Counted from the first letter of the whole stretch, positions 2,401-63,860 are shown. The stretch: DNA of 63,860 nucleotides, filler included, from 5 parts of 5 records of this genome joined end to end with filler, not necessarily neighbours in it, one strand, 5' to 3'. Numbers and translations are program-made. Notes: generated by a model not told the origin, from the letters alone.

Positions 2401-2457
2401 ATATATGTATGCATATATATATGATAAAATAATCTTTGTGGGGAGACTTGGAGGATA

Positions 2458-3495: not shown

Positions 3496-3570
3496 TTGAT
3501 TGATAAGATTTATTGATTATGATAAAATATCACTAGATATATATGAGATTTAAAAGAAAAGGGTGGATCT

Positions 3571-4266: not shown

Positions 4267-4297
4267 TTTATAGAATTTAATGACTATGGTATAAAAT

Positions 4298-4331
4298 AAA
4301 TGCGCGCATCATATGATGCACGCATTTTTTA
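4298..4331. terminator. Bidirectional terminator between convergent genes
   Basis: AAATGCGCGCATCATATGATGCACGCATTT palindrome flanked by A/T runs. Confidence 0.7.
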
Positions 4332-4333
4332 TT

Positions 4334-6534: not shown

Positions 6535-6616
6535 CTTACACCATCCTTTAACTGCTATAATTATAACAAAAATTTAAAAAAAATGTTAGAATAGATAAGG
6601 TATAGGAGGTTGTTTT

Positions 6617-8580: not shown

Positions 8581-8600
8581 GTTAGTAGAAAGAGGGACAT

Positions 8601-9584: not shown

Positions 9585-9603
9585 GACTAGGTGAGGTATA
9601 ACA

Positions 9604-10254: not shown

Positions 10255-10328
10255 CATGAATATTTATTCATGTCTTGAATATTGATTAAAAATAGAGTAA
10301 TATAGTATATGGTGAGGAGAGATATCAT

Positions 10329-21037: not shown

Positions 21038-21092
21038 CTATTCGACGCAACAGAATGGATTGGTTTCCACACACACACACACACACACACAC
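15964..21092 (-). other. Eleven short spliceosomal GT-AG introns plus one partial intron
   Basis: Introns at 20719-20775, 20519-20583, 20307-20363, 19866-19915, 19484-19535, 19025-19102, 18792-18836, 17691-17749, 17454-17514, 16995-17054 and 15964-16016 (45-78 nt), partial at 21038-21092; each length matches the frame offset between the flanking dynein ORFs. Confidence 0.85.
21068..21092. repeat. (CA)n microsatellite inside a dynein intron at the contig end
   Basis: About 12 CA units running into the linker. Confidence 0.9.
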
Positions 21093-23918: not shown

Positions 23919-24006
23919 CAATAAAAGAAGAAAAGATATTTAGATGTATAATGGGATTGTACAAGTTACAATCCCTATTCATCTTATTTTTTAAGGAGTT
24001 GACAGC

Positions 24007-26357: not shown

Positions 26358-26480
26358 TTTTATAGGGTCTCAAAAAATTATATGATAAATTCTAAATAGA
26401 CCTTTCCATATTTGTATGATACTTTGGGTCTTTAAAAAATAAGGTGGTAAAACCGACCTTTCTAAAACTAGGTGGTAGAT

Positions 26481-26511
26481 AAATGGCACTTCAAATGAAG
26501 TGCCATTTTTT
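26481..26511. terminator. Hairpin terminator downstream of the sugar operon
   Basis: AAATGGCACTTCA-AA-TGAAGTGCCATTT plus T-run. Confidence 0.7.
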
Positions 26512-26795
26512 ACTACCATAACTCTTCCTTCTATTTGTTATGTATAAACACATCGTATAAATTCTTGGAAATATATATGTCTTATATATGATTTATTGTG
26601 TATAAAATGTTTGTACTTGTTAAATGTGATAAAGTCGACACTAGCTTTATTTATGGTTAATAACTATATGAAAATGAAGGATTACTTTTTTATTACGAGA
26701 AATAAGCCAATCTAATATCAATTAATATTTTAAAGTTTTTTTATTTTTGATACTTTTGTCATATAATAGATATAAACATTTTATTTGAGGTCGAT

Positions 26796-27503
26796 ATGGG
26801 TACATTAATTAATACAGCTGCAATCATTGTTGCAACAGCGTTAGGTTTATTGTTGAAAAAAGGTTTATCTGAAAAAATACAAAAATCTGTCATCTTCGCG
26901 ATAGGACTCGGACTCTTTGTAGTTTCTATAGGGTGGTTTATCAGTGATTTTATAGTGATAGAAAGTGGTGAACTTTCTACCCGCTTTGATATGCTAATGA
27001 TTATATCTTTAGTTTTGGGGATAGCAATTGGCACATATTTTGATTTAGATGGCAAGATCAATCGTTTTGCTTTAAGCATAGAGAAGAAGTATCAGCTACC
27101 ACCAATTGCTAAAGGTTTTGTGACAGCAACACTTATATTTGGTGTTGGCGCGATGTCTATTACTGGTGCTATTCAAGATGGTGTAGGTGATGGGATGAAT
27201 ATCTTACTCGTTAAGTCTACACTTGATTTTTTCACAGGAATGATACTTGCATCGACATTAGGTATTGGCGTTGGATTTTCAGCAATATTTGTACTCATCT
27301 ACCAAGGAAGTATCACATTGCTTGCATCATTTCTAAGTCAATATGTACCACTTGATATGATTACAGCAGTTTCGATGGTTGGTAATTTAATACTTGTGCC
27401 AATTGCACTTAATTTTATGGACATAACAAAAGTGAAAATTGCAAATTTAATACCTGCGTTATGTATACCTATCATATATTTTATCATCATATCATTCATA
27501 TAA
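26796..27503 (+). CDS. DUF554-family membrane protein
   Basis: MGTLINTAAII, FGVGAMSITGAIQDG and KSTLDF motifs. Confidence 0.85.
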   Translation: MGTLINTAAIIVATALGLLLKKGLSEKIQKSVIFAIGLGLFVVSIGWFISDFIVIESGELSTRFDMLMIISLVLGIAIGTYFDLDGKINRFALSIEKKYQLPPIAKGFVTATLIFGVGAMSITGAIQDGVGDGMNILLVKSTLDFFTGMILASTLGIGVGFSAIFVLIYQGSITLLASFLSQYVPLDMITAVSMVGNLILVPIALNFMDITKVKIANLIPALCIPIIYFIIISFI

Positions 27504-27536
27504 AAAAAAGACCTTTTATATATAAGGTCTTTTTTG
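27504..27536. terminator. Bidirectional terminator
   Basis: AAAAAAGACCTT...AAGGTCTTTTTT between convergent genes. Confidence 0.75.
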
Positions 27537-27554
27537 TTTATTTTAATGTGTGAA

Positions 27555-30539
27555 CTATGCTTCTAGAATGTCGAACCATGAACCATATAAATCATCATAA
27601 TTTTGGTCGAAGACACCGTTATCTGATAATTGATAATTATGGAATTGACTTAAGTTGATATTTCTAATGTTTGTTAATCTTGTAGCTGCAGTGCTATCTT
27701 CAAAAGTAGCACCTTCAACAAGTTTAAAGATTAACTCTCTTTGCATATAAGTGTTTGAATACATAGTTGTTATTGGTGATAAGTAAGTGTTAATTGCATC
27801 TTCAACATCACTTGGAAGTGCAGCACCCTCATCAGTTTCACTTAATACTAAGTAGTATTCAATTTGACTAGCAGTTAATTTTTCTGAATCTTCATTATAT
27901 ACATCTAAGTTAAGATCAACATCAATATAATCTTCATCGTCATCATCATCAGCTTCATAGATTGCACTTGTATGTTCTCCAATTTCATCAACTAAAATGA
28001 AATGGTAACCAAATGATGATTGAATGAGTGATAATTCAGATTCATCTAAACCATCACCATATTGGATTTCATCATAGAAATCAAGGTAAGGATATAATGA
28101 GTCATCATCATCCATATCAACAAGTGTATCATATAAATCAATGGCTCTATCATAGAATACATCATCTAAAACTGATGAGTTTGTAATCATATTAGAACTA
28201 TTAGTAATATCACTTGAAATACTTTCATAAGTCATATAGAAACCTAATTGACGATACTCTGACCAATATAATTCAGGTTGGATATCAATAGCAACGCCAT
28301 TTGCTTCATCACCAAAGCTTCCACGAAGGATTCTACCAGTTTCATTAAATTCAGTTGCTATGTCAGCTAAACCTGATTCAAAGTCAGTATATAATCCAAC
28401 ACGATCATAAACTTCTTCAACTAATGCAAGTAAACCTTCAATAACATCATCTTTAGCATCTACAGTTAATGAATCTAAGTATTCTGTTGGATCATCAGGT
28501 GTTCCATCAGCATCTTGATCAAAATAGATTAATAAGTGAGATACAGTAATAGATTTTTCAAAATCATATTGTAATGCAGCAAGTTCTTCGAATTTTTCAT
28601 AGATTGTTTCGCTATCATCACCATAATGGTTTTCATAATCAGTTAAGTATTGATCTCTTAAGTCTGGATAAACATATAATTCGTTAATGGCTTCTTCGTT
28701 TGAAGTCGCACCGAATGCAACAAGTAAGAATGCTTCTCTACCCATTGAAGCAGGATAACTTGAATAACTATCTGATGAGAAAGCAGTAATGATTTCTTCA
28801 AATTGTTCTTCATAATCATCGTAGTCATCATCGCTTACAGTATATTCATCACTTGCTAATAATACTTTATTAGTTAAGATATCAAATGCTAAGTTAATAC
28901 CATATGCTTTTTCAACTTCAGTATAGAACTCATCTACTGAGATTTCAGTTGTTACGTCATCTACTGTAAGAGAAGCTAATACGTTACCTTCTTTATTATC
29001 ATCTGAACCATCATAACCATAGTTTTGTTCATATAAGATACGTAATGCATTATCATATATATCTAATTCTAAATCATCATATTTATTATTTACAGCAACA
29101 GAGATATAAGAACTAGTTAATTTACTATCAATTAATTCTTCTCTAGCAGTTGCTTTAGCTGCAACAGCTTCAGCAGAATCAGAGAAAATATATTCTTCAT
29201 CATCATCGTCGTCATCAACATCATCAGTATCTTCTACTAAAATACCTTCTTCATCAGCACTGTTATCATCTAATTTAAAGACTAAGTATCTATAATCACC
29301 AAATGTTTGAATTCTTGATGAATATGCTTTTTCTGTGTCAGGGTCTTCAATTAAAGTTTCAGCTGTTAATGTTGAATAGATGTGAGATCTAAGAGAAGTA
29401 TTATAATCAGTTAAATCTTCATATGTATAAGTTGTATCAAATGGATCATCATTTGCATCAACGATAGAACCATCAGTTGATACTGAAATCATTGCTGTTG
29501 GATTTAATACATTATATAGTTCAACAAATTTTTCTTTAATTTGAGCTGTTGTTAATGCTGTATCAGGATAAGCATCTCTAGAAGTTGAGATTGTATATGC
29601 TTTATAGTAATCTTCAAAATCAGATACACTTAATTTTGAACGGTCTGCATAATCAACACCCATTTTACCAAGTAAATCAAGATCTTCTAAAATATCAATA
29701 ATATAACCATAAGTTACAGTATCTGTTAAATCAACGTATCCAGCTTCACCTTGAGCAATACGGATATCAGGTAATTCATACCATAAACCTTTAGAATCAG
29801 ATTTTAATCCAACTTGATATAGTGCAGCATTTGCTTCGTTTAAGTTGATAAAACGTACAACTAATGCTTCGACATCATATTGACCTTCAGTGTTTGATTG
29901 ATAGTATGATACGATATCTTCATCTTCAACATAATAATCACTATCTTCATCATCTACATCTTCTGCAAGTTCATCAGCAGCATATAATCTCTCAGCAACT
30001 GATAACTTGTATGTATCTACGATTACATCGATATCTTCATATCCTGCAAAAGTATCACCTAAGTTGATAAGATCATTATATAAAGCGTCTGTGTCAAGAT
30101 TGTTGTCTAATAAATACATTGAATCAACGAATTGTTCAATGTCCATGATGTAAACGTCGTTATCATCATCATATAAATCTTGTAAATTTTCTTCGTCATC
30201 TGTACCAAAGATGGCAGTATTGACTGTTTCATAGAAGTATTCTAATGTATCTTCATCACCTGATGCTAATTTTGATTCAGCATCTTCAATATAATCACTA
30301 AAAATAATTTCTTCGATCATTGATGATAAGACTGATACACCTTGAATACGGAATTTATCATATAGCTCGACCTCAGATACTGATTCGCCGTCTAATGATA
30401 CGTAAATATTGTCTTCTGATAAGCTACCATATGGTGTTTTCGTGTCACCGCTACAAGCAGCTAATGTGAGCGCTCCTGCAACCACTAATACTAGTGCAGC
30501 AATCCTTCTCATGTTTTTGATTCGATTCATTGTGTTCAC
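27555..30539 (-). CDS. Large, very acidic lipoprotein with PrsA/parvulin-like C-terminal region
   Basis: Lipobox LAAC; VSHLLIY and SSFGYHFI parvulin-like motifs; very D/E-rich. Confidence 0.6.
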   Translation of the reverse strand: MNTMNRIKNMRRIAALVLVVAGALTLAACSGDTKTPYGSLSEDNIYVSLDGESVSEVELYDKFRIQGVSVLSSMIEEIIFSDYIEDAESKLASGDEDTLEYFYETVNTAIFGTDDEENLQDLYDDDNDVYIMDIEQFVDSMYLLDNNLDTDALYNDLINLGDTFAGYEDIDVIVDTYKLSVAERLYAADELAEDVDDEDSDYYVEDEDIVSYYQSNTEGQYDVEALVVRFINLNEANAALYQVGLKSDSKGLWYELPDIRIAQGEAGYVDLTDTVTYGYIIDILEDLDLLGKMGVDYADRSKLSVSDFEDYYKAYTISTSRDAYPDTALTTAQIKEKFVELYNVLNPTAMISVSTDGSIVDANDDPFDTTYTYEDLTDYNTSLRSHIYSTLTAETLIEDPDTEKAYSSRIQTFGDYRYLVFKLDDNSADEEGILVEDTDDVDDDDDDEEYIFSDSAEAVAAKATAREELIDSKLTSSYISVAVNNKYDDLELDIYDNALRILYEQNYGYDGSDDNKEGNVLASLTVDDVTTEISVDEFYTEVEKAYGINLAFDILTNKVLLASDEYTVSDDDYDDYEEQFEEIITAFSSDSYSSYPASMGREAFLLVAFGATSNEEAINELYVYPDLRDQYLTDYENHYGDDSETIYEKFEELAALQYDFEKSITVSHLLIYFDQDADGTPDDPTEYLDSLTVDAKDDVIEGLLALVEEVYDRVGLYTDFESGLADIATEFNETGRILRGSFGDEANGVAIDIQPELYWSEYRQLGFYMTYESISSDITNSSNMITNSSVLDDVFYDRAIDLYDTLVDMDDDDSLYPYLDFYDEIQYGDGLDESELSLIQSSFGYHFILVDEIGEHTSAIYEADDDDDEDYIDVDLNLDVYNEDSEKLTASQIEYYLVLSETDEGAALPSDVEDAINTYLSPITTMYSNTYMQRELIFKLVEGATFEDSTAATRLTNIRNINLSQFHNYQLSDNGVFDQNYDDLYGSWFDILEA

Positions 30540-50050: not shown

Positions 50051-50051
50051 T

Positions 50052-50261
50052 TTTTGTACTATTTCTTCAAATGGTTCAACTTATGGAACTACATTAAGTT
50101 CTGTTACTGCTGATGGTTCAGGTAATTGGACTTTAAATGTAAAAGCAGAAAAAGCAGATAATACAGTTTCAGTAAGAAATTGTATAGTAAGATTAACAGA
50201 TGATAGTGATGCTTCTGTAACAATTGATATTGAAATTGACCAAATGGTTGTTGCAATTTAA
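50052..50261 (+). CDS. C-terminal fragment of a beta-sandwich (BACON-like) phage protein
   Basis: ...WTLNVKAEKADNTVSVRNCIVRLTDDSDASVTIDIEIDQMVVAI*; the N...R...Q pattern resembles BACON domains. Confidence 0.45.
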   Translation, partial: FCTISSNGSTYGTTLSSVTADGSGNWTLNVKAEKADNTVSVRNCIVRLTDDSDASVTIDIEIDQMVVAI

Positions 50262-50271
50262 AATAAAACCT

Positions 50272-50544
50272 ATGATTGAGATACAAGGAATTTGAGAAGT
50301 AATATTAAAGGTATTACCAGTAATAATAACAATATTAATATATTGGTTTGGAGTTGTAAGAACTAATGAAAGACAAAATGTAGAAATATTAAATATGAAA
50401 AATAATATTGATTCAACTTGTAAAAGAATAGACAAATTGGATAATGATAAAGTAGATAAATATTCTATGGATTTATTGATAAATACTTTAAACCGAATAG
50501 ATAATAAAATAGATAAATTACAGGAACAAATTAATAAAAAATAG
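50272..50544 (+). CDS. Holin-like protein (1 TM plus coiled coil), 90 aa, TGA at codon 8
   Basis: MIEIQGI(W)EVILKVLPVIITILIYWFGVV...LNRIDNKIDKLQEQINKK; fills the gap between neighbours exactly. Confidence 0.6.
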
Positions 50545-50546
50545 AA

Positions 50547-53426
50547 ATGACTTGTTTAAATAAAATATTATGGAATGTTTATAGGGGAGATACTATAAAT
50601 GTTCCTTTAATTTATGAATTAATAGACGGTGCTACATACACTATTCAATTGAGAAAAGAATATGATGATACTGAATATATCACTTTAACAATAGAAGATA
50701 CAAATATTGTAATCACTTCTGAACAAAGTGAAAATTTAGTAGAAGGTTCTTATTTAGTAGAATTAGAAGAAACCAATGTAGGAATAGTAACAACTGTTCA
50801 AACTACAAAAGTTTACATTAATGAAGATTCTACTAGAATATATGGTGAAGCTATACCCGATTGAGAAACAAAAGCAGATGTAGTAAGGGCAGAATGACCA
50901 GAAATAGTAGCAGGTTCATTTTATACAAGGTTAGAAGATGGTTCATTAGAACTTTTAACTAGTTCTGGTTCTGTAGATTTAACAGAAGTTACTAATACAA
51001 TAGCACAAGAAGTAACTGATAGAACTAATGCAGATTTAGATTTAGCTGGTACTGGTAGAACAACTGAAACGATTAAACAAAATACAGATAATTTATCTAC
51101 ACATATTGCTGATGAAAATAATCCACATTCTGTAACTAAAATACAAATTGGTTTATCAGATGTTGATAATACAAGCGATATTAATAAACCAGTATCTTCT
51201 GCTGTACAAACGGAATTAAATTTAAAATCAGATTCTACACATAATCACAGTACAGAATATGAACCAATAAATACAAATATTCAGGAACATATTAGTAATA
51301 CTACAGGTAATCCACATTTGGTAACTAAATCAGATATTGGTTTATCAAACGTACCTAATACTGATTTTACAGATGCTGTAGCTGCAAATACTGCCAAAGT
51401 TGGTATAACTACTGAACAAACAAACGATATTACAGCGAATAATGCAAAAATTAGTTATACTGATGCAAGTGATGTAACAGCTAATACAGCAGCCAGACAC
51501 ACACATTCAGAAGGTGAAACAGCAGCTATAACAGGTGCTAATTTACCTTCTGGAACTAATGTATTTGCAACTATGGATGATATTTCAGATTCAGGTAGTG
51601 GTGATATGATGAAATCAGTTTATGATACTGATAATGATGGTAAAGTAAATTCTGCTGATAATTCCGATACTGTAAATAATTTAACTGTAGAAACAGCAGT
51701 ACCAGTAGGTGCAATTTTTACAGATACAATTTATTCACACCCTGCAACACATAGTATGACAGAAGTTTCTGGATTACAAACTGAACTAAATAGTAAAGCA
51801 GAAATTTCAACTACATATACAAAAACAGAAGTAAATAGTGCTTTAGCATTAAAAGAAGATTCATTTACAAAAAGTACAGGATTTAATAAAGATTTTGGAA
51901 CAATAGCAGGTACAGTAGTTGAAGGTAATGATGTAAGATTAAGTGATGATAGAACACCATTAGCACACAATCAAAACATAAGTACAATTAATGGTTTACA
52001 AGCTGAATTAGATGGTAAAGTAGATGATTCACAAGTATTGACAAATGTACCAGCTGGTGCTTTATTTACAGATACAATTTATGATGATACAGCGATACAG
52101 GCAGAAGTAGATTTAAATACTGCTAAAACAGGAATTACTACACAACAGGCTAATAATATTTTAGCTAATAATGCAAAGATTAGCTATACAGATTCTGCTG
52201 CTGTAGGTTTAAATACTACACATAGAACTACAACTACTGGAAATCCACATAATGTAAACAAATCAGATGTAGGTTTAGGTAATGTACAAAATACAGACTT
52301 AACAGCAGATGTAGCAGCCAATACTTTAAAAGTTGGAATTACTACACAACAGGCAGCAGACATAACAGCAAATAATGCTAAAATTTCAGCTACAGGAACA
52401 GAACTAGAACCTGCTGATATTGGTGTAACAGTTCAGGGTTATGATGTTGATACAACTAAACAAGGTGTAATAACATTATCAAGTTTAGGTTTTACAGGTG
52501 ATAATGATTCAAATAATTATACACACCCTGCAAATCATTCACCTAGTATTATTACACAAGATTCTAATAATAGATTTGTAACCGATACAGAAAAAAGTAC
52601 TTGAAATGGTAAACAAGATTCTTTATTAACAAATCAAATTATTGATTGAAGTGTAACAGGCATAGAAGATTTACATATTGATAGAATACCTGCTTTAGGT
52701 TATGAACCTGCAAACAGTAATATTCAATCACATATATCAAATACAAATAATCCACATTCTGTAGATAAAACTGATGTTGGTTTAAGTAATGTTCCAAACA
52801 CCGATTTTACAACACCAGTAGCAGCAAATACTTCACATAAAAATACTACTTCTGGTAATCCACATTCTGTAACTTTATCAGAGTTAGGTTATACAGGTGA
52901 TAGTGATGCTAACAATTATGTACACCCAACAAATCATACTATTTCTGAAATAACTGGATTACAAACTACATTAGATGCTAAAGAATCTTCATTTAGTAAG
53001 AATACAGCATTTAATAAAAACTTTGGTTCTGGTTCAAGTACTGTTTGTGAAGGTGATGATTCACGTTTAAGCGATAATAGAACACCTGTAGATAGTTCTG
53101 TTACATACGTAAAAGTAGATGAAACATTAACCCAACGTTCAACAGATAATGATGGAACTTGGGACTTTTCAGCTAATGGTTTAGTAGATGCTGCAATTAG
53201 TAGTAATACTACAGTTACATTTACTAATTTACAATTAAACAAAGTTTTAAAAGTAAAAGTAGTTGTAACAAATTCAGCAACTATTACACTACCTTCTTAT
53301 GTTAGTATTTTAGATGGTTCAGCAGAAGCAAGTGGTGCAAATGGAACTTATTTCTTCTACTTCGATTGTTGAAAAAGTACAACAACAGAAGAAGTATTAT
53401 TAACAATAAGAAAGGAAGCAGCATAA
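50547..53426 (+). CDS. Phage tail fibre-like protein, 959 aa with five in-frame TGA codons
   Basis: One frame through TGA at 50862, 50895, 52602, 52647 and 53370; NPHxVTKxxxGLxNV repeats; ends in a TAATG overlap with the next gene. Confidence 0.85.
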
Positions 53427-54085
53427 TGATACCAAGTATAGGACAAATGATTCCGAGTAGTGCAGGTGGTTCTCTTATTCCATATTATGTAACAGCTTCA
53501 AATTTATATTCAACAACATTATCTTATGGGTTTGAAGGAACATACCCTACTGGGATTGAAACAGGTGATATATTAATTGGATGTTCTATCTGTTCAACAG
53601 GCACATCGGAAATTAAACCTTCTGGTTTTGATACAGTTAGTTATGAAACTCATTCAAGCTTTACTGTAACTATTTCTAAAAAAATAGCAACTGGTTTAGA
53701 AAGTGGAGATTTTACACTAACTTCGAATTCTGCTCAAATGAATGCATTTGTTATGTATGTATTCAGAGGTGCAACAGCTTCAATCCCTGTTACCAATGAA
53801 GCTTCAAGTAATATAGTAGTTGGGTCTTTAACGACAGTACCTAGCTTTTCAGTATCTAGTAATGGCTCATTAGCTGTAGCAATTATATCAATAGAAGACA
53901 ACCCAACGTGTACTTTAAGTGGTACAGGGTGGGTACAACAATCAAATAAGTCAACTACTACCTATACTGACGGTAGAATAGTTTTGGCTACTAGTGATAT
54001 GTTAACTTCTGGAGCAACATCGGTATTAGAGGCATCTCATTCCGCTGATTATAATACATATACAATATTTACTTTAAATATTTAA
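53426..54085 (+). CDS. Phage tail-associated beta-rich protein (219 aa)
   Basis: ATG coupled to the upstream TAA; S/T-rich; PTGIETGDILI and VFRG segments resemble minor tail proteins. Confidence 0.6.
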   Translation: MIPSIGQMIPSSAGGSLIPYYVTASNLYSTTLSYGFEGTYPTGIETGDILIGCSICSTGTSEIKPSGFDTVSYETHSSFTVTISKKIATGLESGDFTLTSNSAQMNAFVMYVFRGATASIPVTNEASSNIVVGSLTTVPSFSVSSNGSLAVAIISIEDNPTCTLSGTGWVQQSNKSTTTYTDGRIVLATSDMLTSGATSVLEASHSADYNTYTIFTLNI

Positions 54086-54088
54086 AAT

Positions 54089-54583
54089 ATGAAAGCAAAA
54101 ATAATAGACAACAAAATAAAAATTGGATTACCTAGAGTATATAAAGGTATTACTGGTACATATCCGGGTGGTTTTCAATTACAATCAGATGAAATACATA
54201 AACAAGAAGGATTTTATGAGATAGTAGAACCTGTTTATGATAGAGATGTTCAGAAATTAGGTGAACTTTATTGAGATGAAACTAATGAAGTATTTACTTA
54301 TCCTGTAGAAGATATAGTGTTTAATCTGGAAGATTTAAGAGAACAAAAATTAAATCAATTTTCAGATGTTTTAGATGAATTTTCAGTATTGATTACAAGA
54401 TGTAGATTAGTAAGTGGTGATGATAATGAAGGTTTAAATGCAGTAATTGAACAAACTAAAACAATGAGATTAAATACAATAAATGCTATTAATTCTATTG
54501 AAACAGTTAAAAGTATGTTAGCATTTCAAATTAAACCAGATGATGTAGAATTTATGAAATCTTTATTCAATGATTATAAATAA
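54089..54583 (+). CDS. Phage hypothetical protein (possible tail-fibre assembly), 164 aa, TGA at 54272
   Basis: ORFs 54089-54274 and 54317-54583 share a frame and join as LGELY(W)DETNEVFTYPV. Confidence 0.7.
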
Positions 54584-54584
54584 T

Positions 54585-55046
54585 ATGAAAAGATTATGAT
54601 TTAAAATAAAAAAGTTTTTGAAGCAAGTTTACAATCGAATTAAGGAAGGTTCAAAAATTTATATACCAGTTGCAATTGAAGTTGTAGAAGTGGTAAAAAA
54701 GGTACTAGAATCACCTGTAGATGATGTTATAATTTCAGTTGTTGGTTCAATTGTTCCAACATTACCAACTGTAAAAATTAACTATGTAAAAGATAAAATA
54801 GAATCAGCTTTACCTAAATTATTATTAGAATTAAATTTGATTAATACAGCAGTACAGAGTGATGATATAAATGAACAGTTGAAAGAAGTACTTAAAGTAT
54901 TTAAACTTTTACCAGATGAAGTAAAAGCAGAAAAATATCACATTTTAGCCTCTAAATTGCTAGTTATCTTAGGTGATGGTAAAATAAGTTGAAGTGAAGC
55001 AGTAATTTTTACTGAATGGTATTATCAAACATATATAAAGAAATAG
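54585..55046 (+). CDS. Phage hypothetical protein, 153 aa, TGA at 54597 and 54990
   Basis: MKRL(W)FKIKKFLKQ...DGKIS(W)SEAVIFTEWYYQTYIKK*; ATG one base after the upstream stop; terminator follows the TAG. Confidence 0.7.
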
Positions 55047-55056
55047 ATTATAAATC

Positions 55057-55092
55057 AAGGTGTTACATTCATTTGTAATACCTTTTTCTTTA
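55057..55092 (+). terminator. Terminator ending the phage operon
   Basis: AAGGTGTTACA-TTCATT-TGTAATACCTT plus T-run. Confidence 0.7.
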
Positions 55093-55116
55093 TATAAATA
55101 AAAAATACGCTAGTAT

Positions 55117-55216: not shown

Positions 55217-56159
55217 CATAGCAATTGACTTCAATGTAGAGATGAGCTTTAATGTTGCTGAAATTAAAACCATGCTAGATGAATACGAAGCTGATAAGAA
55301 TGCTGGAATGGATATAGAACTTATGTCAGAGAGCTTATACGACTACACAAGCGGCTATCCATACCTAGTAAGTAAGTTATGCTATGTTATAGATAAAGAT
55401 CTAAATGCTGACTTCTCAAAAGAGGGAATAGAGGCAGCCGTTAAATTAATACTAGAAGAAAATAACACGCTGTATGATGATTTGATTAAAAATATAGAAA
55501 ACAACCAGGAACTATACAACCTTGTAGAAAAGATTATAATTCGTGGAGATAGTATTGACTATGTTCAGACAAATCCTTCTATCTCATTAGGAACAATGTT
55601 TGGAATATTCCGAAAGACAAAAGATAAAAAAGTAAGAATCCATAATAAAATATTTGAAATATTACTCTATAATCATATGATTTCTAAGATAAATGAAAAA
55701 GACAATCAGTTGTCTAGGTATAATTTTAGAGACAACTTTATAAATGAAAATGGAGATATAAATTTAGAGAAGATACTGCTAAAGTTCCAACAATTCATGA
55801 AGGAAAATTATAGCGATAAGGATCAGGACTTTTATGAGCGGCAAGGAAGACTGCTGCTAATAGCATTTATAAAGCCAATTATAAATGGAGTAGGCTTTTA
55901 CTATATAGAGAATCAAGTAAGCTATGAGAAAAGATTAGATATGGTAATTACATATAATAAAAAAGAGTATATCCTTGAATTTAAGGTTTGGTATGGTAAG
56001 GAATACCATGAAGCAGGTTTGGATCAACTAGCAAACTATCTTGAAATTAAAAACCATAGTAAAGGTTATCTAGTTGTGTTCAATTTTAATAAAAGCAAAG
56101 AATACAGCAGTAAATGGCTAAGTAATAAAAATAAGGATATATTTGAAATAATCGTGTAG
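55217..56159 (+). CDS. AAA-like ATPase with C-terminal PD-(D/E)XK domain (5' end missing)
   Basis: IAIDFNVEMSF, YTSGYPYLVS, FIKPIING, RLDMVI...ILEFK and QLANYL motifs. Confidence 0.8.
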
Positions 56160-56282
56160 ATCACGTTTTATCTTAACGGTGAAAACAGGTTAGTTATTCA
56201 TTACTTTTATAAAAATGTAGTAAAAACTGTTAATCTTAAAATAATCCAAAATTATAATTTTGGAGAAGAGGCTAAATTTTTT

Positions 56283-56315
56283 TAAGCGAGATGTTTTAAA
56301 TCATCTCGCTTTTTT
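56283..56315. terminator. Bidirectional terminator
   Basis: AAGCGAGATG...CATCTCGCTT plus T-run, between convergent genes. Confidence 0.7.
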
Positions 56316-56321
56316 ATATAC

Positions 56322-57638
56322 TTAATCGTCGGAAGTTCCATAAAGAAGAGCTTCCAATTCTTTCTCGTATTCATCGTTATCAGGGATAGGATCAACTAAC
56401 AAATTAAAAGGAATTTCAATATTAGGAAAATATGATTTTACAATATTTATAAGTTCTTTAGTGTAATGTTTTCTAGAGAGAGGATTATAAGAACCGATTA
56501 AAGTTTCTGTAATAGAATTAAATGTTTTTTCTATTTCATGCAAAATAGTAAAATTAGTAAAGCCCATCTCACGTCCTATTCCTCTCATAAACTTTAAGAA
56601 AATAAAGTAATCATATGATTCTGATTTAGTTTTCTCATTTAAAATATTTCTGAGAATAGAGGTTGTTGAAATATCTTTACTTTTAGAAATACTAAGTGGA
56701 GTATAATTCTCTTCTAAAATAACAAATTCTCTTAAAATCGCAACAAGGTCATATACGTATAAAGGGGTGTATAGTCCTACTCTACTTAAATATACGTCTC
56801 TTATCTTCAATACACTATTGACATATCCTTTTTCAACGAAATTTTTTATTTTGACCATATAATCTTCTCTTGAGTAAGAAGTGCCGCAACATTTATCAAT
56901 GAAATAATTAAGAGTGATATCTTCGAGGTTAATGGGATACAAGTATTCATAGTCTTGATAATGTTCTAATGGGTCGTTAAAGGAGTCTTTATATTCAGCC
57001 CATAATTGTTTATGTATGTATTTTTCTTCTGCAAACTTTCCTCTGAATTCTAGGCTTTTAATTTTTATTATTGAAAGTTCTTCTAGTGTGTAATGATCTT
57101 CATATTGCTTTAGAGTATAGTTATTTTTTAGTTTTGATTGAAGAATTTTTAAATGTAGTAAGCAATTATCAGCATCAAAACTATGTTCAAGTAGTTTATT
57201 GTAAAGGTGTTGCCAAAATAAATAATGAAATTCGGCAAAAGCTTCAGCAACGTCTTCAATAATAGAATCTATATTTTGTAGTTCGAAATTATTAATTAAG
57301 TTTTGCTTAAACTCTATAATATTATCACTATATTTATTGCTGTTGAAACCATCCGGTGTGGATGGTGTACGAGGCACAATCTCTATGTTTTCCTTGCTTA
57401 GTTTCAATAATATATTGTCCTCATAGTCATGAATAAAGCCAAGAAGGTTCCTATATTTTTCAAACTTAATGTATTCTTTGTCTAAATTAAAGAACTTAAA
57501 AAGAGATACTTCTCTTCTAAGTAAATTTCTTCCAATTATTTTGAAGGCATCTTCTTCTTTGTATGTTTTATAGTCAGATAACTTTCCCTTAGCTAAGTCA
57601 GCATTATATATTTCTCTAATTAAATCTATTTTTTTCAA
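56322..57638 (-). CDS. Hypothetical protein (438 aa)
   Basis: Long ORF in AT-rich DNA; AAGGGGA RBS with TTG start; no family recognised. Confidence 0.7.
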   Translation of the reverse strand: MKKIDLIREIYNADLAKGKLSDYKTYKEEDAFKIIGRNLLRREVSLFKFFNLDKEYIKFEKYRNLLGFIHDYEDNILLKLSKENIEIVPRTPSTPDGFNSNKYSDNIIEFKQNLINNFELQNIDSIIEDVAEAFAEFHYLFWQHLYNKLLEHSFDADNCLLHLKILQSKLKNNYTLKQYEDHYTLEELSIIKIKSLEFRGKFAEEKYIHKQLWAEYKDSFNDPLEHYQDYEYLYPINLEDITLNYFIDKCCGTSYSREDYMVKIKNFVEKGYVNSVLKIRDVYLSRVGLYTPLYVYDLVAILREFVILEENYTPLSISKSKDISTTSILRNILNEKTKSESYDYFIFLKFMRGIGREMGFTNFTILHEIEKTFNSITETLIGSYNPLSRKHYTKELINIVKSYFPNIEIPFNLLVDPIPDNDEYEKELEALLYGTSDD

Positions 57639-57780
57639 TGTAATCCCCTTTCAAAAAAATGCAAAAAAATCGCTCCTATTATAATATAAATTAATGTGTT
57701 AACCTTATATCACTCGAATAGAAGCAGATTTATGATGTAAAAGCATTATAACATATTAAAAAATATTAGGAGGGATTTAA

Positions 57781-58680
57781 ATGGAAAAATATAATGAAAT
57801 GGTGAGTAGAGGATTAGATTTAAATGAATTAAATAATATGGATCTTTTAAATATAGGAGAAATTAATTATTATAATTTATATGATGAAGATCCAGAAGTC
57901 TTTGAAGATATGGAAGATAATTTGGGATGTATTAATGAGGTTAAAGAATTCTTAACTGAAAGAATTAAAAGAATGAGTGCTTTTATAGAAGAGATAGGTA
58001 ATTTAACTGGTGAAATAGAAAGTGATGATAGACTTAAAAAAATACAAAAAGATTGGTTCAATTTAATTGAGTTTAAAATGAATTTAGATGCATTAAATAA
58101 AAAATTTATGAAGTGTAAGATAGAATTAATTTTGAAAAATGTAGTTACCTGGTATATGAAATATGGTCAAGATTTAGAAGAGTTTGAATCACTAGATGAC
58201 TGTATTTATCATTATTTTGAATTTTCAGGAGAAGAAGAGATTTATCAAAAAATAAAGAGCAACCTTTCTTCAATAGAAATAGAAATATTGAATGGAAATA
58301 TTTCAGAGAATGAAAGAATGATCTATTTTATTTTAGATGGCTCTAAAGTAAAGTATGAAAGTACTTTACTACACTATTTTTATTCTCGATTTGAGTTAGA
58401 TAGAGAGATGTATTTACTTTACAAGGATTATTCAAATGAGAATAAAAAGTTTGAGAGAAAACTTCAGGAGGTGTATATTGAATTAAACGACTTATTGTGT
58501 GCTACGCAGCTCGAAGAAAGTTTAATAGAAGAGTATGATAATTTAAAGAAATTTATGGAGCCAAATGAAGTAATAAAAAGAGAAAATCTTATGAAAATAA
58601 AAAGCAGTATACAAGAGTTTGCTACAGATAAAGAAACTTTAGATTTGCTTATTGATATTGAAGAATACCTTGAAGCATAA
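57781..58680 (+). CDS. Hypothetical acidic helical protein (299 aa)
   Basis: GGAGG RBS and long ORF; no family recognised. Confidence 0.7.
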   Translation: MEKYNEMVSRGLDLNELNNMDLLNIGEINYYNLYDEDPEVFEDMEDNLGCINEVKEFLTERIKRMSAFIEEIGNLTGEIESDDRLKKIQKDWFNLIEFKMNLDALNKKFMKCKIELILKNVVTWYMKYGQDLEEFESLDDCIYHYFEFSGEEEIYQKIKSNLSSIEIEILNGNISENERMIYFILDGSKVKYESTLLHYFYSRFELDREMYLLYKDYSNENKKFERKLQEVYIELNDLLCATQLEESLIEEYDNLKKFMEPNEVIKRENLMKIKSSIQEFATDKETLDLLIDIEEYLEA

Positions 58681-58810
58681 TAATGACCACTTGTAAAATA
58701 ATCGATTGTCTCTATGTTTTTGTTGGACTTTAACAGTAAAACAGAGTATAATAAAAACACAATCCAATAATTTGCGGAAAACACCGAAAAATTACGGAAA
58801 AGAGGTTTTT

Positions 58811-59623
58811 ATAATAAAACAAAAGTTCATCCTTTATGATATGAACTACTTCTATGCTCAAGTTGAAATTAGGGATAACCCTGAGTTAAAGAATACCCCT
58901 GTGGCTGTAGCTGGTAAACCTGAGATGCGTGGAGCAATCGTAACAACTTGTAACTATATAGCAAGAGAGAAAGGTGTTCATGCAGGAATGCCAAGTATGG
59001 AAGCGAAAGATCTTTGCCCTAGATTGATCTTTAAAAAGCCTAGAATGGATGTGTACTACCAAATACATAAACAAATATCAAAGATAGTAGAGGAGTACTC
59101 AGACTGTATCGAATATATAGCTCTTGATGAGGCCTATATTGATGTGACAAACACAGAGTGGCTGTTTGGAGGAGCTGATAAGATAGCTTTAGAGATTCAA
59201 AGAAGAATCCTTGAGGAAACTGAGCTGACTTGTAGCGTTGGTGTGGGGTATAACAAGATGACAGCAAAGTTGGCAGCGGACCAAATTAAACCATCAGGTT
59301 TCTTTAATATGGATACTAGGGAAAAGTTTCTTGAAGCTATGTCAGAGAAATCAATAAGAAAAATACCTGGTATAGGTTCTAAGATTGAGTATAGATTAAA
59401 CCGACTGGGAATATTTACAGTAAGAGAACTTCAGAATGCAGATCCATTTAAACTGAAGCAGGAGTTTAAGAAAGTTGCTAGTAACTGGCTTCGGAATGTT
59501 TGCCAAGGCTACTCTAATTACTCTGTCGGTATGTTTCATAGAGAAGGTCAAAAAGGAATAGGAAAATCTGTTACTTTAATGCAAAATACACGAGATTATA
59601 AATGGTTAAAAATATATTTATGA
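58811..59623 (+). pseudogene. dinB: DNA polymerase IV (Y family), C-terminally truncated
   Basis: YDMNYFYAQVE, NYIAREKG, LDEAY, AKLAAD-KP and IPGIG motifs; stops at the start of the little-finger domain; ATA instead of ATG after the GAGG RBS. Confidence 0.75.
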
Positions 59624-59649
59624 TTTAATAATAACTTAAAGAAAGGATA

Positions 59650-60069
59650 TTAATTAAATGCTATCTTAAATATTTCTAGGGCAACTTGAAATTGATTAAT
59701 ATTAATTTTAAAGCCATATTTTTTAGCTTTTAATTCGGGATTCATCCAGTTTGCTGACAAAAATATATAACCAAAACTTTGTGCTAAGTTATAGTGGAAA
59801 TTTTTATATCCTACTATAACTAAATCACCTGGAATGAAAGATCTATTAAAATCTTTTACTGTTTTTTTAGCTTCAGCTCTGGTTAAAGTATAGATTGTCG
59901 ATCCAAAGATCTGTTTTAATTTATTACGCTTATTATAATCATTAGACATAAAAATAAATATATAAGTTTTTTTATATTTTTCGATTATTTCATATAATTC
60001 TTTATATTCATCTTCCTTAATTTTTAAAATTATATCAGCAGGTACTAGAATAGCTTTAATTTTCCCCAA
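59650..60069 (-). CDS. Hypothetical protein with a degenerate HAD-like fold
   Basis: GGAGGA RBS, TTG start; LVIVG...LAQSFGYIFLSANW resembles HAD motif IV region without the Asp residues. Confidence 0.55.
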   Translation of the reverse strand: MGKIKAILVPADIILKIKEDEYKELYEIIEKYKKTYIFIFMSNDYNKRNKLKQIFGSTIYTLTRAEAKKTVKDFNRSFIPGDLVIVGYKNFHYNLAQSFGYIFLSANWMNPELKAKKYGFKININQFQVALEIFKIAFN

Positions 60070-60175
60070 TTTAATCCTCCATTAATTTTTCAATTTTTAT
60101 AATACTTAGTCGAATCTACTTATCTTTTATTTAAAGGGTTGATATAGTAACACTAACAGTTTTTTATTCTCCTTA

Positions 60176-60205
60176 AGATGGGAGAACCTAGTTGTTCTCC
60201 CATCT
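60176..60205 (-). terminator. Hairpin downstream of the peptide gene
   Basis: AGATGGGAGAAC-CTAGTT-GTTCTCCCATCT, perfect 12-bp stem, no clear U-tract. Confidence 0.5.
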
Positions 60206-60253
60206 ACTAGGAATTTAATCATTTATAAGAGCAAAAGGTTGTGACGATCTTTT

Positions 60254-60331
60254 TTAACATGCTCCACATGAAGCCTCCGCAAAAGCTAAAGCAGTAGTTA
60301 GAATAAAAATTAAAAACATTGTCCTTTTCAT
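60254..60331 (-). CDS. Putative secreted signalling-peptide precursor MKRTMFLIFILTTALAFAEASCGAC (25 aa)
   Basis: AAGGAG RBS; basic N-region, hydrophobic core and A-F-A cleavage site; divergent from an HTH-TPR gene. Confidence 0.75.
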   Translation of the reverse strand: MKRTMFLIFILTTALAFAEASCGAC

Positions 60332-60477
60332 AAATATCATCTCCTTAAAATTTTTCTTAATTTTAACGAATTAATAGACAAAAAAAACAAATTATGATAA
60401 TATGATTTAAAGTTAATAAGAAAATGTAATTTTTATTATTAATTTTATCGAATAACTAAAAATTGTGAGGCAAAACA

Positions 60478-61719
60478 TTGGAATTATTAAGTTCAGGAGA
60501 AAAGTTAAAAAAAATAAGAAAAAAACACAAAATTACTCAAAAGGAGTTAGTTAGAGGTATTACTACAACAGCGACATTGTCTTATATTGAAAATAATAAG
60601 TTTAATATAAGTGAGGAATTAGCTTTAAAACTTTGTGAACGGTTAAATGCTTTTAGTGTTGATTCAAAAAATCTTATTGAACCTAAAGAACTTTTTAAAT
60701 CTAAAAAACAACTTGAAGAGGAGTATGTAAATCATTATTTGAAAAAAATAAATAAAATGAAAGTTGAAAAGCTGCACAAAGTGTTAGCTCCTTTTAATGA
60801 TTCTGATAATTATTATCAGAAAAACAGATTATTTTTTGTTGCTGCAGCTTATTTGTTTAAAAAAAATTGGAGTTATAGTCGTAAATTGTTCGAAGAAGTG
60901 GTTGATATTTCAATCTTTAATAATTATAAATTTTCAAATGCTACAATATTATTTCTACAAAGAATCTATATTCAAACTGATTTAAATGCTTGTCAGAATC
61001 TATATAAAAATTATAAACACCATCTTTTGCAGGGGGATTATCCTGTTAAAGGGTTTGTTTTGTACAACTTTGGAGTTACTTTTTTGAGGTTGGAGGAGTA
61101 TAAAACAGCATATTTACTTTTTTATTCTTCACTTCAATTAAAAACTTCAGATAATGTAAATGAATGGGGAATGAATAATTTAGTTCTTTGTCAGCTCAAA
61201 TTAAAAAAATATAATGAAGCTTTAGACTTCTGTTCTAAGCTACTTAATAAAACCTCAAATGATTTTATTAAAAAGAATTGTTATTCTAATCTACTTTCAA
61301 TAGGAATACGAACGAAAGATTCTTTTTTAATCGAAAATAATATTGTTAAACTTGTTAATCATATTGAAAAACTAGAAGAAAGCTTTAAACATCAAGGATA
61401 CTTTTCTATTGCTAAGGGGTACTCCTTTCTTGGTGATAGGTTGAATAGTGGTCGGTTTTTTCTTAAAGAATTACAACTTGGTTATAAAATTAAAAATTCT
61501 CATTTTGACTTTAATGTTTATGAGGTGTGTATAGAAAATCTACTAGAAGTCTATCTTGATCTAGACATAAAGGAATTAAAAAATCTTGAGAAACATATTT
61601 TTGAAATTCCTTATGAAAATTTATCTAAACAACTTCTTTCAAAAATTATTCATAAATATAAAGCTTCGTATCCTTTAGCAGCGTTTAATATATTTTTGAA
61701 AAATTTAATATCTATTTAA
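60478..61719 (+). CDS. XRE-HTH plus TPR transcriptional regulator (RRNPP-like)
   Basis: GEKLKKIRKKHKITQKEL...LSYIENNK HTH; TPR-like helices (LYNFGVTFLRLEEYKTA, NNLVLCQLKLKKYNEA, YFSIAKGYSFLG). Confidence 0.8.
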   Translation: MELLSSGEKLKKIRKKHKITQKELVRGITTTATLSYIENNKFNISEELALKLCERLNAFSVDSKNLIEPKELFKSKKQLEEEYVNHYLKKINKMKVEKLHKVLAPFNDSDNYYQKNRLFFVAAAYLFKKNWSYSRKLFEEVVDISIFNNYKFSNATILFLQRIYIQTDLNACQNLYKNYKHHLLQGDYPVKGFVLYNFGVTFLRLEEYKTAYLLFYSSLQLKTSDNVNEWGMNNLVLCQLKLKKYNEALDFCSKLLNKTSNDFIKKNCYSNLLSIGIRTKDSFLIENNIVKLVNHIEKLEESFKHQGYFSIAKGYSFLGDRLNSGRFFLKELQLGYKIKNSHFDFNVYEVCIENLLEVYLDLDIKELKNLEKHIFEIPYENLSKQLLSKIIHKYKASYPLAAFNIFLKNLISI

Positions 61720-61829
61720 CCTCCTTTTAGTTGAGGAAATTATCTGGTTTGATGTGATAAAATATATGTTATTTTTGTACTTAAGCTTAAAAACGTGGCT
61801 AAAACATCTAAAGAAATTAATAACAAAGA

Positions 61830-61880
61830 AAAAGAGAGGTCAACCTAGAAGTTAAATTCTAGGCCTTGACCTCTTTTTTT
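61830..61880. terminator. Bidirectional terminator between the regulator and the pyrF operon
   Basis: AGAGGTCAA-CCTAGAA...TTCTAGG-CC-TTGACCTCT with flanking A/T runs. Confidence 0.7.
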
Positions 61881-61892
61881 AGTTTAAGTTTA

Positions 61893-62192
61893 TTAGTTTG
61901 TAGACTGAGAATATACAGATATCTGATTATAAAAATCCAATGCTTTCAATTTTCCTTCTTCTTCAGATGAAAAATTATTAAATCGGCATAATCCATTTTT
62001 ATAGAAATGAAAAATTTTTGATTCTTCTTTAACAATTAAGCAATTATCATTTAGAAACATTCCCTTCATGTGTTTTGCTTTAATCATTTCTTCAATGGTT
62101 TTCAAATTAATTTCATTTTTAATTTTCATTACTGTAGTAAATGTTTCTAATTCCGAACAAAATTTTTCAGTTTTAATAAAAGCTAATTCCAT
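61893..62192 (-). CDS. Hypothetical protein (99 aa), possibly TBP-like fold
   Basis: Abuts the pyrF stop; FHFYKNGLCRF...SSEEEG pattern. Confidence 0.6.
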   Translation of the reverse strand: MELAFIKTEKFCSELETFTTVMKIKNEINLKTIEEMIKAKHMKGMFLNDNCLIVKEESKIFHFYKNGLCRFNNFSSEEEGKLKALDFYNQISVYSQSTN

Positions 62193-62855
62193 TTAATTCG
62201 TCTCTTTTTCATTAATAAAGTCAAGAACAGCTTTTCTAGGGTTATCGGCTTGGTAGATAGATCTTCCAATTATTGCATAATTAGCGCCAGCATCAATAAC
62301 TTGCTTAAACTTACCTCCTTGTGCTCCCACGCCACATGAAACAATTATTTTATCATTTCCAATTATTTTCCTCAATTTTTCCACTTCTTCAGGTCGTGTT
62401 CCAGGGGCTTGAATACCAAAACAGTCTAGTAAATTACATAGTTCTGCAAAATTTTGAGAATGCTGTCTAGTAAACTCTAATCCACCCGGATGAGTTAATT
62501 CTGTAACTATTATAATTTTAATTTCATCCTTAGATTTTTCTTTAAGTTCTAAAATGGCATCTGATCCAATAAAACCATGAACCATAATAGCATCTGCACC
62601 AGCTTCTCTAGCTAGATCGATTATTCTATTATTCGTAACAGGAACATCAGCAACCTTTAAATCAGCAACAATAGGTAATTTATATTTTTCTTTAACTTCA
62701 GTAATTATTGAGATTCCTTCTTTTAATATTAAAGGATAATTAAACTTAACTGCATCAATTAAGTCGTGACATTGATCCATAACTTCAAAAGTTGTCTTTC
62801 TATCAGGTGTGTCTAGAGCTAACATAATATTACTATTTTGATTTAATAAATTCAT
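62193..62855 (-). CDS. pyrF: Orotidine-5'-phosphate decarboxylase (archaeal-like)
   Basis: LALD, DLKVADVPVTN, VHGF, GVGAQGG and IIGRSIY motifs; GGAGG RBS before ATG 62855. Confidence 0.85.
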   Translation of the reverse strand: MNLLNQNSNIMLALDTPDRKTTFEVMDQCHDLIDAVKFNYPLILKEGISIITEVKEKYKLPIVADLKVADVPVTNNRIIDLAREAGADAIMVHGFIGSDAILELKEKSKDEIKIIIVTELTHPGGLEFTRQHSQNFAELCNLLDCFGIQAPGTRPEEVEKLRKIIGNDKIIVSCGVGAQGGKFKQVIDAGANYAIIGRSIYQADNPRKAVLDFINEKETN

Positions 62856-62893
62856 TTTTCCTCCTAATTTCAATTTTTATTAATTTAACTTTA

Positions 62894-63379
62894 CTATTTT
62901 TCAATTTTTTCTAACTGTAACTCTTTATGCCCAGTATTTTCATCATATTTTTTATACATTCTTATATTATCACTACAAAGTATAGCTAGTTCAACAGTAG
63001 AAAAAACAGTACATCCTCTTAATAGATGTCCTCCAATACAATTACCAGATAAATCATTTAACGTTAAATGAATATGTATATTCTCTTGAGATATAGTTCC
63101 AGTTCCCCCGCATATTTCATAAATACCTTCTTCTTCAAAATAATCATAAACTAAAACGTTAGTTAGCTTATCTCCTGTTTTTGAACAGTAAGCTCTATAT
63201 TTTTTTGTATTTGCACTTGGAAACCTTAATTTTGATTTTTGAAAACTTCCCACAATACTTAAAATATAACCAGCAGTTATCTGGTGTTTTTCGGCGATTT
63301 CTCTTATTTTTGTTTTGAGATCTGAACCTTTTTCTATTCTTTCCGTTATAATTCTTAAATTTTTACTTTCTAAAGCCAT
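62894..63379 (-). CDS. PPC / DUF296-domain protein
   Basis: RIEKGSDL, YEICGGTGTI, HIHLTL and GGHL motifs. Confidence 0.85.
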   Translation of the reverse strand: MALESKNLRIITERIEKGSDLKTKIREIAEKHQITAGYILSIVGSFQKSKLRFPSANTKKYRAYCSKTGDKLTNVLVYDYFEEEGIYEICGGTGTISQENIHIHLTLNDLSGNCIGGHLLRGCTVFSTVELAILCSDNIRMYKKYDENTGHKELQLEKIEK

Positions 63380-63860
63380 AGATCTTCTCCTCTTGTTTTG
63401 CTTAAATTTTCAAGTACAATTTTTAATATTTGTTTGAATTTCTCTTCTTTAGAATCTAAACCATTAATCACATGGTAATTTTTTATTTCACCCCAAGGTT
63501 TGTTTAGAAAAACATCTCTTACTTTCTTCATTCTATTTATGTCTAATTCTTCTCTTTTTTTAGATTTTCCATCTCTGTTTATAATCCTTTTTATGGCAAC
63601 TTCTATTGGGAGGTCAATAAAGATTGTTATATCTGGAATAGGAGCAAATCTATTAATATTTTTTAACCATTCTATATCATTAATTCCACGGGCTGAAAAA
63701 TAAGCATAGGTTGAAAAAACATACCTATCTGATATAACAATTTCTCCGTCCTCTAACTTAGGTAATATTTCTGTTTGAATATGCCTAAGTCTATCACTTG
63801 CTGCAAATAAAGCTAGTTCCTTGGTAAGAGCTGGTGTTTCTTCAATTTCTTGATTTAAAA
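63370..63860 (-). CDS. tmk: Thymidylate kinase-like protein (5' end cut by window end; absent from the ORF track)
   Basis: Minus-strand translation gives ELALFAASDRLRHIQTEILPKLEDGEIVISDRYVFSTYAYF...PDITIFIDLP. Confidence 0.85.
   Translation of the reverse strand, partial: LNQEIEETPALTKELALFAASDRLRHIQTEILPKLEDGEIVISDRYVFSTYAYFSARGINDIEWLKNINRFAPIPDITIFIDLPIEVAIKRIINRDGKSKKREELDINRMKKVRDVFLNKPWGEIKNYHVINGLDSKEEKFKQILKIVLENLSKTRGEDLWL

Follow-up and report, generated by a model that had tools for sequence, protein, structure and literature searches.

A TGA-to-tryptophan recoded phage fragment with prophage relatives in predicted standard-code Bacteroidota

Introduction

Phages that read TGA as tryptophan (Trp; genetic code 4) in hosts that keep the standard code (table 11) are already in print, as are prophage integrases free of the recoded stop and recoded genomes with no detectable suppressor tRNA. 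In the main-text passages of the preprint by Borges et al. (10.1101/2021.08.26.457843), Agate, Jade and some crAss-like phages recode TGA to Trp in standard-code hosts. The same passages describe Garnet and Topaz, temperate phages of 22-34 kb in standard-code Bacteroidetes (Prevotella) or Firmicutes, in which nearly all genes are broken under table 11, the integrase is free of the recoded stop and the guanine-plus-cytosine (GC) content rises at the borders. Here we describe contig D, a 5,066-bp fragment at positions 50051-55116 of the 63,860-base stretch of DNA that we analysed (the window), in which nine in-frame TGAs are sense codons. Contig D is very probably the late-gene right end of a small tailed phage that uses code 4 and whose host is likely a standard-code member of the Bacteroidota.

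In common with the Agate, Jade and crAss-like code-4 phages, as these passages portray them, contig D has TGAs that align with Trp, low GC, a predominance of TAA among its stops and no TGA stops. As in Agate-type phages, recoded members of its lineage sit beside non-recoded close relatives (here L105, as compared with G001 and L104), and we expect its host, like theirs, to keep the standard code. The suggestion in the original prediction, made from the DNA alone, that this could be an undescribed recoded phage lineage was thus too strong, since comparable TGA-to-Trp phages have been reported (Borges et al., 10.1101/2021.08.26.457843). The code-4 clades named there are, however, large lytic gut phages (Agate is about 127 kb), whereas contig D belongs to a parent contig of 28.8 kb, has a relative of about 24 kb and is linked to prophages. 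Its named relatives, judging by record titles, come from environmental metagenome-assembled genomes (MAGs).

Garnet and Topaz offer a second likeness, as their integrase, border GC and broken-gene pattern recur in a prophage relative of contig D that lies in a Bacteroidetes MAG (G002); in the preprint text they recode TAG to Gln, whereas the contig D lineage would recode TGA to Trp. Neither full-text literature searches nor the main-text passages of Borges et al. yielded an account of a TGA-recoded prophage from the Bacteroidota. Dense in-frame TGAs and low GC are also features of the phages of Mycoplasma and Spiroplasma (code 4) and of Gracilibacteria and Absconditabacteria (code 25, in which TGA is glycine), but in the passages of PMC10746230 that deal with them these phages copy the code of their hosts. 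The host of the contig D relatives, in contrast, has release factor 2 (RF2) and TGA stops, and the homologous columns hold Trp and not Gly.

Named phages related to contig D were limited to short matches to its tail-fibre repeats, covering at most 3% of the query. Recoded phages that work like the contig D fragment have reportedly been described by Ivanova et al. Likeness to Crassvirales consisted only of matches to tail-fibre repeat stretches of 125-133 nt, with no search aimed at crAss markers. Judging from its visible relatives, which are tape-measure phages of about 24 kb with a TerL of phrog_9, contig D does not appear to be crAss-like.

Results

The window comprises five contigs (A to E) joined by N-linkers that carry an all-frame stop spacer. 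Contig D is bounded by such linkers, has a GC content of 0.295 and carries all nine TGAs, at positions 50293, 50862, 50895, 52602, 52647, 53370, 54272, 54597 and 54990. The original prediction had placed nine in-frame TGAs here, with TGG also in use and every remaining stop TAA or TAG, and each of these statements was borne out: all nine are present and in frame, spread over four of the five complete genes (1, 5, 0, 1 and 2 per gene in order), and the 1,590 in-frame codons include five TGG and not a single TAA or TAG, whereas the other two frames contain 91 and 99 TAA and 80 and 33 TAG. All six gene ends are TAA or TAG and none is TGA. The longest open frame extends over 962 codons when TGA is sense, as compared with 568 under table 11, where the open frames are 568, 259 and 240 codons; across 200 dinucleotide shuffles the longest open frame averaged 114 codons and reached at most 188. 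Counting TGA as Trp raises the Trp content of contig D from 0.37% (TGG only) to 0.92%, the neighbouring contigs having 0.57-0.88%.

All 5,066 bases of contig D were matched with zero differences in an independent Logan assembly, in which one DNA run contains the stretch and the parent contig is 28,785 bp long at a depth of 63.5, with contig D at 23,422-28,487. The TGAs are therefore not errors of the present assembly, while the identity is no test of sequencing errors because the Logan run may be the source sample. Comparison of the contigs, which are unable to reveal rare variants, gave none, and the runs listed as containing the stretch include no RNA run, only the one DNA run.

Read through its TGAs, contig D resolves into complete plus-strand genes separated by 10, 2, -1, 3 and -14 nt, in line with the predicted spacing of 10 nt or less. 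It opens with the 3' end (69 codons; 50052..50261) of a 5'-cut gene that has no TGA, ends at a TAA stop (50259-50261) and shows weak Ig-like Pfam hints (E 0.05-0.09). The following gene (50272..50544, TAG stop) encodes a protein of 90 amino acids (aa) with one hydrophobic helix and a coiled-coil-like tail; its PHROG matches were weak only (phrog_739, an Rz-like spanin, 6.6e-4). Its TGA at 50293 is codon 8 and is supported by the 10-nt spacing after the preceding stop. Between this TGA and the ATG at 50395 there is no in-frame ATG, GTG or TTG, so that a table-11 reading of the gene would lose the hydrophobic helix.

The largest gene (50547..53426, TAA stop) encodes a 959-aa tail fibre with repeated motifs and contains five TGAs, at 50862, 50895, 52602, 52647 and 53370 (codons 106, 117, 686, 701 and 942). 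It matches PHROG tail, tail-collar-fibre and tail-fibre families (3e-22, 8.7e-19, 1.2e-17 and others) and Pfam PTR (2.5e-6), and a scan of 1.84 billion representatives returned 13,885 at E<=0.001. Because of the PHROG and Pfam matches we assign contig D to a phage, as had been predicted. The 219-aa gene (53426..54085) has no TGA and its start overlaps the tail-fibre stop in the expected TAATG (53424-28); the protein fell into viral hypothetical clusters only in the ESM Atlas (score 0.97, Viruses 82-96%), and no relative of the gene was found in IMG/VR. It is followed by a 164-aa gene (54089..54583, TAA stop) with a TGA at 54272 (codon 62), homologues of which follow tail-fibre genes in other phages, and by the last gene of the late operon (54570..55046, TAG stop), which encodes a 158-aa protein and has TGAs at 54597 and 54990 (codons 10 and 141). 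Neither of these two proteins matched a Pfam or PHROG family. The AlphaFold2 model of the 158-aa protein is all-helical (pLDDT 68.9), and a fold search against BFVD gave nothing at E<=0.001 among the 343 matches listed at E<=10. A terminator-like hairpin of 11 pairs followed by a T-run (55057..55084, plus strand) lies 32 nt before the end of contig D.

The homologues of these genes continue across the TGA sites. At column 62 of the 164-aa gene, an aromatic codon is present in all 32 related DNA loci (TTT 25, TTC 1, TAT 3, TGG 3), and none of the 32, of which 25 are metagenome and 7 IMG/VR loci, has Gly or ends there; protein homologues of this gene number four. At column 141 of the 158-aa protein, 26 of the 27 homologues have W and the other a gap; in DNA, L008, L010 and L012 carry TGG there, and L009 and the window carry TGA. 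At column 150 of the same gene L012 has TGA and the others TGG, while column 10 is occupied by W 7, L 8, I 5, F 3 and M 1 among the 27 homologues, with three gaps. For the tail fibre we tallied the 150 best of the 13,885 representatives. Within the FVTDTEKSTW motif, 173 of the 189 aligned stretches have W at column 686 (L 13, I 1, F 1, gap 1). The codon at this column is TGG in MT836387, a faecal phage, and TTT in phiCT19406B, a Clostridium phage; a regular expression for the motif, run over 40 loci and contig D, found it in the window alone. Column 942 is W twice and T once, columns 106 and 117 are covered by only two and three alignments, respectively, and none of 743 candidates for the N-terminal domain (residues 1-165) reached E<=0.001. 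In all, Trp or aromatic residues occupy four of the TGA columns, and W or hydrophobic residues a fifth (column 10 of the 158-aa protein); a sixth is neutral, and the remaining three have no informative homologues. None contradicts Trp. These columns argue, as the prediction did, that TGA is a sense codon in contig D and that it means Trp rather than Gly.

Close DNA relatives of contig D share with it only the 158-aa gene and the terminator, at 54-57% identity. Searching with this gene, we found L008 and L009 in IMG/VR and three genome-contig matches in total, namely L010 in a "Bacteroidetes bacterium" MAG and L011 and L012 in two Prolixibacteraceae MAGs. The DNA of L009 and L010 is 74-85% identical up to a hairpin just after the 158-aa gene, beyond which the similarity stops, and this is the same hairpin as that at 55057-55084 of contig D. 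Open-frame coverage increases from table 11 to code 4 in L008 (0.66 to 0.84), L009 (0.76 to 0.90) and L010 (0.81 to 0.89). The relatives carry a tape-measure-sized gene, and TGA-bearing open reading frames (ORFs) make up 13 of 16 in the left half of G001, which is classed as a provirus, and 10 of the 15 phage ORFs in G002:C65.

The TerL of G001, with four TGA and two TGG, matches phrog_9 as a single stretch (1.9e-128), and its portal gene, with two TGA, has a PHROG match at 1.6e-90. Among G001, L104 and L105, the codon at six Trp columns of TerL and two of the portal is TGA in some and TGG in others, with exchanges in both directions. The IMG/VR fragment L105 (1-7398) has a TerL 79% identical to that of G001 and eight head genes without an in-frame TGA, all of its stops being TAA or TAG. 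It would be a TGA-free member that reads the same under codes 4 and 11, so that recoded and code-11-compatible members sit close together. A TerL search of IMG/VR for fuller relatives returned only G001 itself and two 7-kb fragments.

Other copies of the 158-aa gene are incomplete or distant. L012 (9790-9927) retains only the last 46 codons and L011 (2845-3081) a partial or decayed copy with a frameshift-like end; both, from the Prolixibacteraceae MAGs, look like remnants of related prophages. A second homologue in the G002 MAG (G002:C68:13866-14339), with 26% identity and no internal stops, may belong to another prophage.

The G002 prophage is split over contigs C65 and C40, and both of its ends are joined to host DNA. 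On C65 the late genes run up to the 158-aa gene at the right end and are followed by host genes for YccF, PAPS reductase, RsmF, a BamB-like protein, an M20 peptidase and serine dehydratase, with GC going from about 0.30 to 0.43 at the border. C40 starts within TerL and continues through early genes and a large serine recombinase into host MatE and GH127-like genes at GC 0.44. By collinearity with G001 the missing piece, containing TerL and portal, is about 2.8 kb, giving a prophage of about 24 kb. Its serine integrase (532 aa) has no in-frame TGA, encodes both Trp as TGG and has TGA as its own stop; TGAs occur in the genes from the replication initiator on. The host side has the apparatus of the standard code: prfB scores 469.7 bits, above the curated cut-off (a prfB in G004 is also above it), 6 of 26 genes of C65 stop at TGA, and ARAGORN, run on the loci of all 51 Rfam tRNA matches, found one tRNA-Trp(CCA) and no UCA anticodon, these loci overlapping so that a few genes are counted twice. 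We therefore read the relatives as recoded prophages in a standard-code host.

Shine-Dalgarno (SD)-like motifs are absent upstream of all five contig D genes, as the prediction had noted; G002, with motifs at 2 of 26 genes, resembles it, and contigs A (8/9), C (15/29) and E (5/8) do not. The earlier observation that TGA serves as a stop in the low-GC neighbours also held, with TGA ending 1 of 9 genes in contig A, 8 of 29 in C and 1 of 8 in E. The proposed Bacteroidota-type host is made plausible by the lack of SD motifs and by the genome-contig matches, three out of three of which are in Bacteroidota MAGs, while for contig D itself the host is deduced from these relatives.

The decoder that might have been expected, a tRNA-Trp(UCA) or a release factor, was not seen in contig D or in the prophage of about 24 kb. 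No tRNA or other RNA was found in contig D, the only tRNA of the window being a tRNA-Leu(CAA) in contig A, and ARAGORN, Rfam at gathering score and Rfam at E<=1 gave no tRNA in G001, G003 or the G002 prophage parts. Nor did a PHROG search for code-change machinery among the early prophage genes of G001 and G002 return anything informative. It is possible that MAG incompleteness or odd tRNAs explain the missing decoder. In the preprint text of Borges et al. (10.1101/2021.08.26.457843), a TGA suppressor tRNA is found in only 35% of code-4 genomes, so that its absence here is a gap of an already documented kind.

Directly after the integrase of the G002 prophage lie two TGA-free genes encoding proteins of 229 and 186 aa (L075 4474-5723, G002:C40, minus strand). 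Neither protein has a Pfam or PHROG family, and no RNA was detectable in the 560-bp gap that follows. Apart from the integrase they are the sole genes without a TGA at the left end of the prophage, and they are candidate early genes that would function under the standard code.

Discussion

We conclude that in contig D TGA encodes Trp under code 4, leaving TAA and TAG as the sole stops. By analogy with the G002 relative, the lysogeny gene, a serine integrase, would be readable in the standard code of the host, whereas the replication, head, tail and lysis genes would need TGA to mean Trp and would be untranslatable until the code is switched at induction or infection. From this arrangement we infer a regulatory role for the recoding. 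The phage of contig D is probably temperate and about 25-29 kb in size; its own evidence on integration is that contig D ends 32 nt past the terminator, where the phage similarity of its relatives stops. Its host, to go by relatives that share one gene with it, is most likely a standard-code member of the Bacteroidota and not the low-GC, SD-using bacterium of the adjoining contigs.

How the code might be switched can be pictured in a way that we consider rather unlikely: small temperate Bacteroidota phages of this family may make a cell that uses the standard code read UGA as Trp with no suppressor tRNA involved. On such a route, a TGA-free early protein might blunt RF2 or alter the host tRNA-Trp(CCA) to read UGA. 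The suggestion is based on a composite of about 24 kb in which two methods found no tRNA, on a host MAG with RF2 and only tRNA-Trp(CCA), and on the 229-aa and 186-aa proteins, which belong to no known family and whose genes are the only TGA-free ones beside the integrase.

Several observations weigh against the reading of contig D as a code-4 phage of a standard-code Bacteroidota host. Contig D and the prophage relatives are 68-69% identical in nucleotides over only about 460-510 bp, and the other four genes of contig D have no counterpart in them. Junctions of prophage and host in a MAG could in principle be assembly chimeras. The decoding step lacks support, since no suppressor tRNA, release factor or tryptophanyl-tRNA synthetase was seen in contig D or its relatives, and the SD argument is weakened by a test that was a crude regular expression applied to first-start ORFs. 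Three of the nine TGAs (50293, 50862 and 50895) have no informative homologues. Among the 45 aligned stretches at tail-fibre column 701 (TGA 52647) the residues are G 20, T 6, E 5, Y 4, W 2 and others, and L011, a decayed copy, shows G at column 141 as well as a TGA where the column is not Trp. Finally, the protein collection includes proteins called with code 4: P0013 is the L010 protein (10001-10462) and has W exactly where the DNA has TGA. The W counts from protein matches are thus not fully independent, and we therefore read the DNA of the relatives directly.

Glycine, as in code 25 and a phage of Gracilibacteria or Absconditabacteria, would agree with the low GC, with Gly as the commonest residue at column 701 (20 of 45; GGC in MT836387) and with the G of L011, and it was the outcome that the prediction had named as a sign of code 25. 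Column 701, however, is an unconserved linker with 10 different residues and the sole column that could mislead toward code 25, and Gly occurs at no conserved column: these are W or aromatic (0 of 32 Gly at column 62, W in 26 homologues at column 141 and in 173 of 189 stretches at column 686), and the TerL and portal Trp columns exchange TGA for TGG, which together make code 25 extremely improbable. Equally hard to credit is that the TGAs are genuine stops, whether through decay of a prophage, errors of assembly, or single sites of programmed read-through or selenocysteine. Table-11 frames of 568, 259 and 240 codons do remain, and decayed copies of the 158-aa gene exist (L011 and L012). Against this stand nine TGAs in frame with no TAA or TAG in 1,590 codons, when the off-frames hold 80-99 of each (one with 33 TAG), pieces of 10 and 14 codons between TGAs that are too small for genes, homologues that are continuous over the TGA sites, and an identical second assembly; the Trp and aromatic columns also fit poorly with selenocysteine.

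Other alternatives concern the host. In the ordinary case the phage would match a code-4 host (e.g. Mycoplasmatales or Entomoplasmatales), and contig D would have been swept into the assembly or bin by its low GC. A GC of 0.295 and a dominance of TAA stops are indeed as in Mollicutes and their phages, the assembly is mixed, with a eukaryotic contig, and the host of contig D is itself deduced. Mollicutes, however, use SD sites, and no gene of contig D (0/5) has an SD-like motif. All three genome-contig matches of the 158-aa gene lie in Bacteroidota MAGs, a relative is integrated beside host genes in a MAG that has RF2 and TGA stops and whose sole tRNA-Trp is the CCA form, both MAGs that host relatives (G002 and G004) carry prfB, and the neighbouring bacterial contigs have TGA as a stop; we thus regard host matching as very unlikely. 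Also unlikely is that the recoded phage has as its host the bacterium of contigs A and C (perhaps E), which would be Firmicutes- or Mollicutes-like, uses SD sites and keeps the standard code, so that the host code would still be standard. These contigs share an assembly or bin and a GC of 0.28-0.32 with contig D, whose tetranucleotide correlation with A and C is 0.83-0.85, and recoded Firmicutes phages are known from the text of Borges et al. (10.1101/2021.08.26.457843). The correlation of A with C, at 0.988, is nonetheless far above that of either with D, SD usage differs (0/5 as compared with 8/9 and 15/29), the search for spacer or att matches between contig D and the other contigs of the window gave only single chance 14-mers, and the relatives are in Bacteroidota.

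A code-4 phage of a standard-code Bacteroidota host is thus the reading that we prefer, and it has practical consequences. Any gene caller set to table 11 will fragment contig D and the related prophages and may fail to recognize them as phage. The relatives are the TGA counterpart of the TAG-recoded prophages that have been used to argue that recoding separates lysogeny from lysis. G002 is a compact case, of about 24 kb with both junctions visible, a host MAG at hand and no UGA decoder in phage or host, and a small Bacteroidota prophage is more tractable for the question of UGA decoding than a gut phage of 100-500 kb.

Other features of the window

Contigs A (1-11018) and C (21193-49950) carry chromosomal genes, among them those for cardiolipin synthase, NAPRTase and aroA, and their tetranucleotide frequencies correlate at 0.988, which points to a single low-GC bacterium as the source of both. 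We considered contig C as a prophage carrying the contig D fragment and rejected this, as it carries chromosomal genes (aroA, DAHP synthase, ABC transport, hydrogenase-like) that stay open when read with table 11. Contig B (11119-21092, GC 0.52) is eukaryotic and encodes on its minus strand dynein heavy-chain motor domains (AAA_9 1.8e-78, AAA_8 3.3e-53, AAA_6, MT stalk and D6 region); its presence among bacterial and phage contigs marks the assembly as mixed. Contig E (55217-63860, GC 0.28) encodes a PD-(D/E)XK-like protein, a Y-family polymerase (IMS 7.4e-50), a 413-aa helix-turn-helix (HTH) protein, OMP decarboxylase and several proteins without a family. It reads under table 11, uses SD sites and has a tetranucleotide correlation of 0.88-0.89 with contigs A and C.

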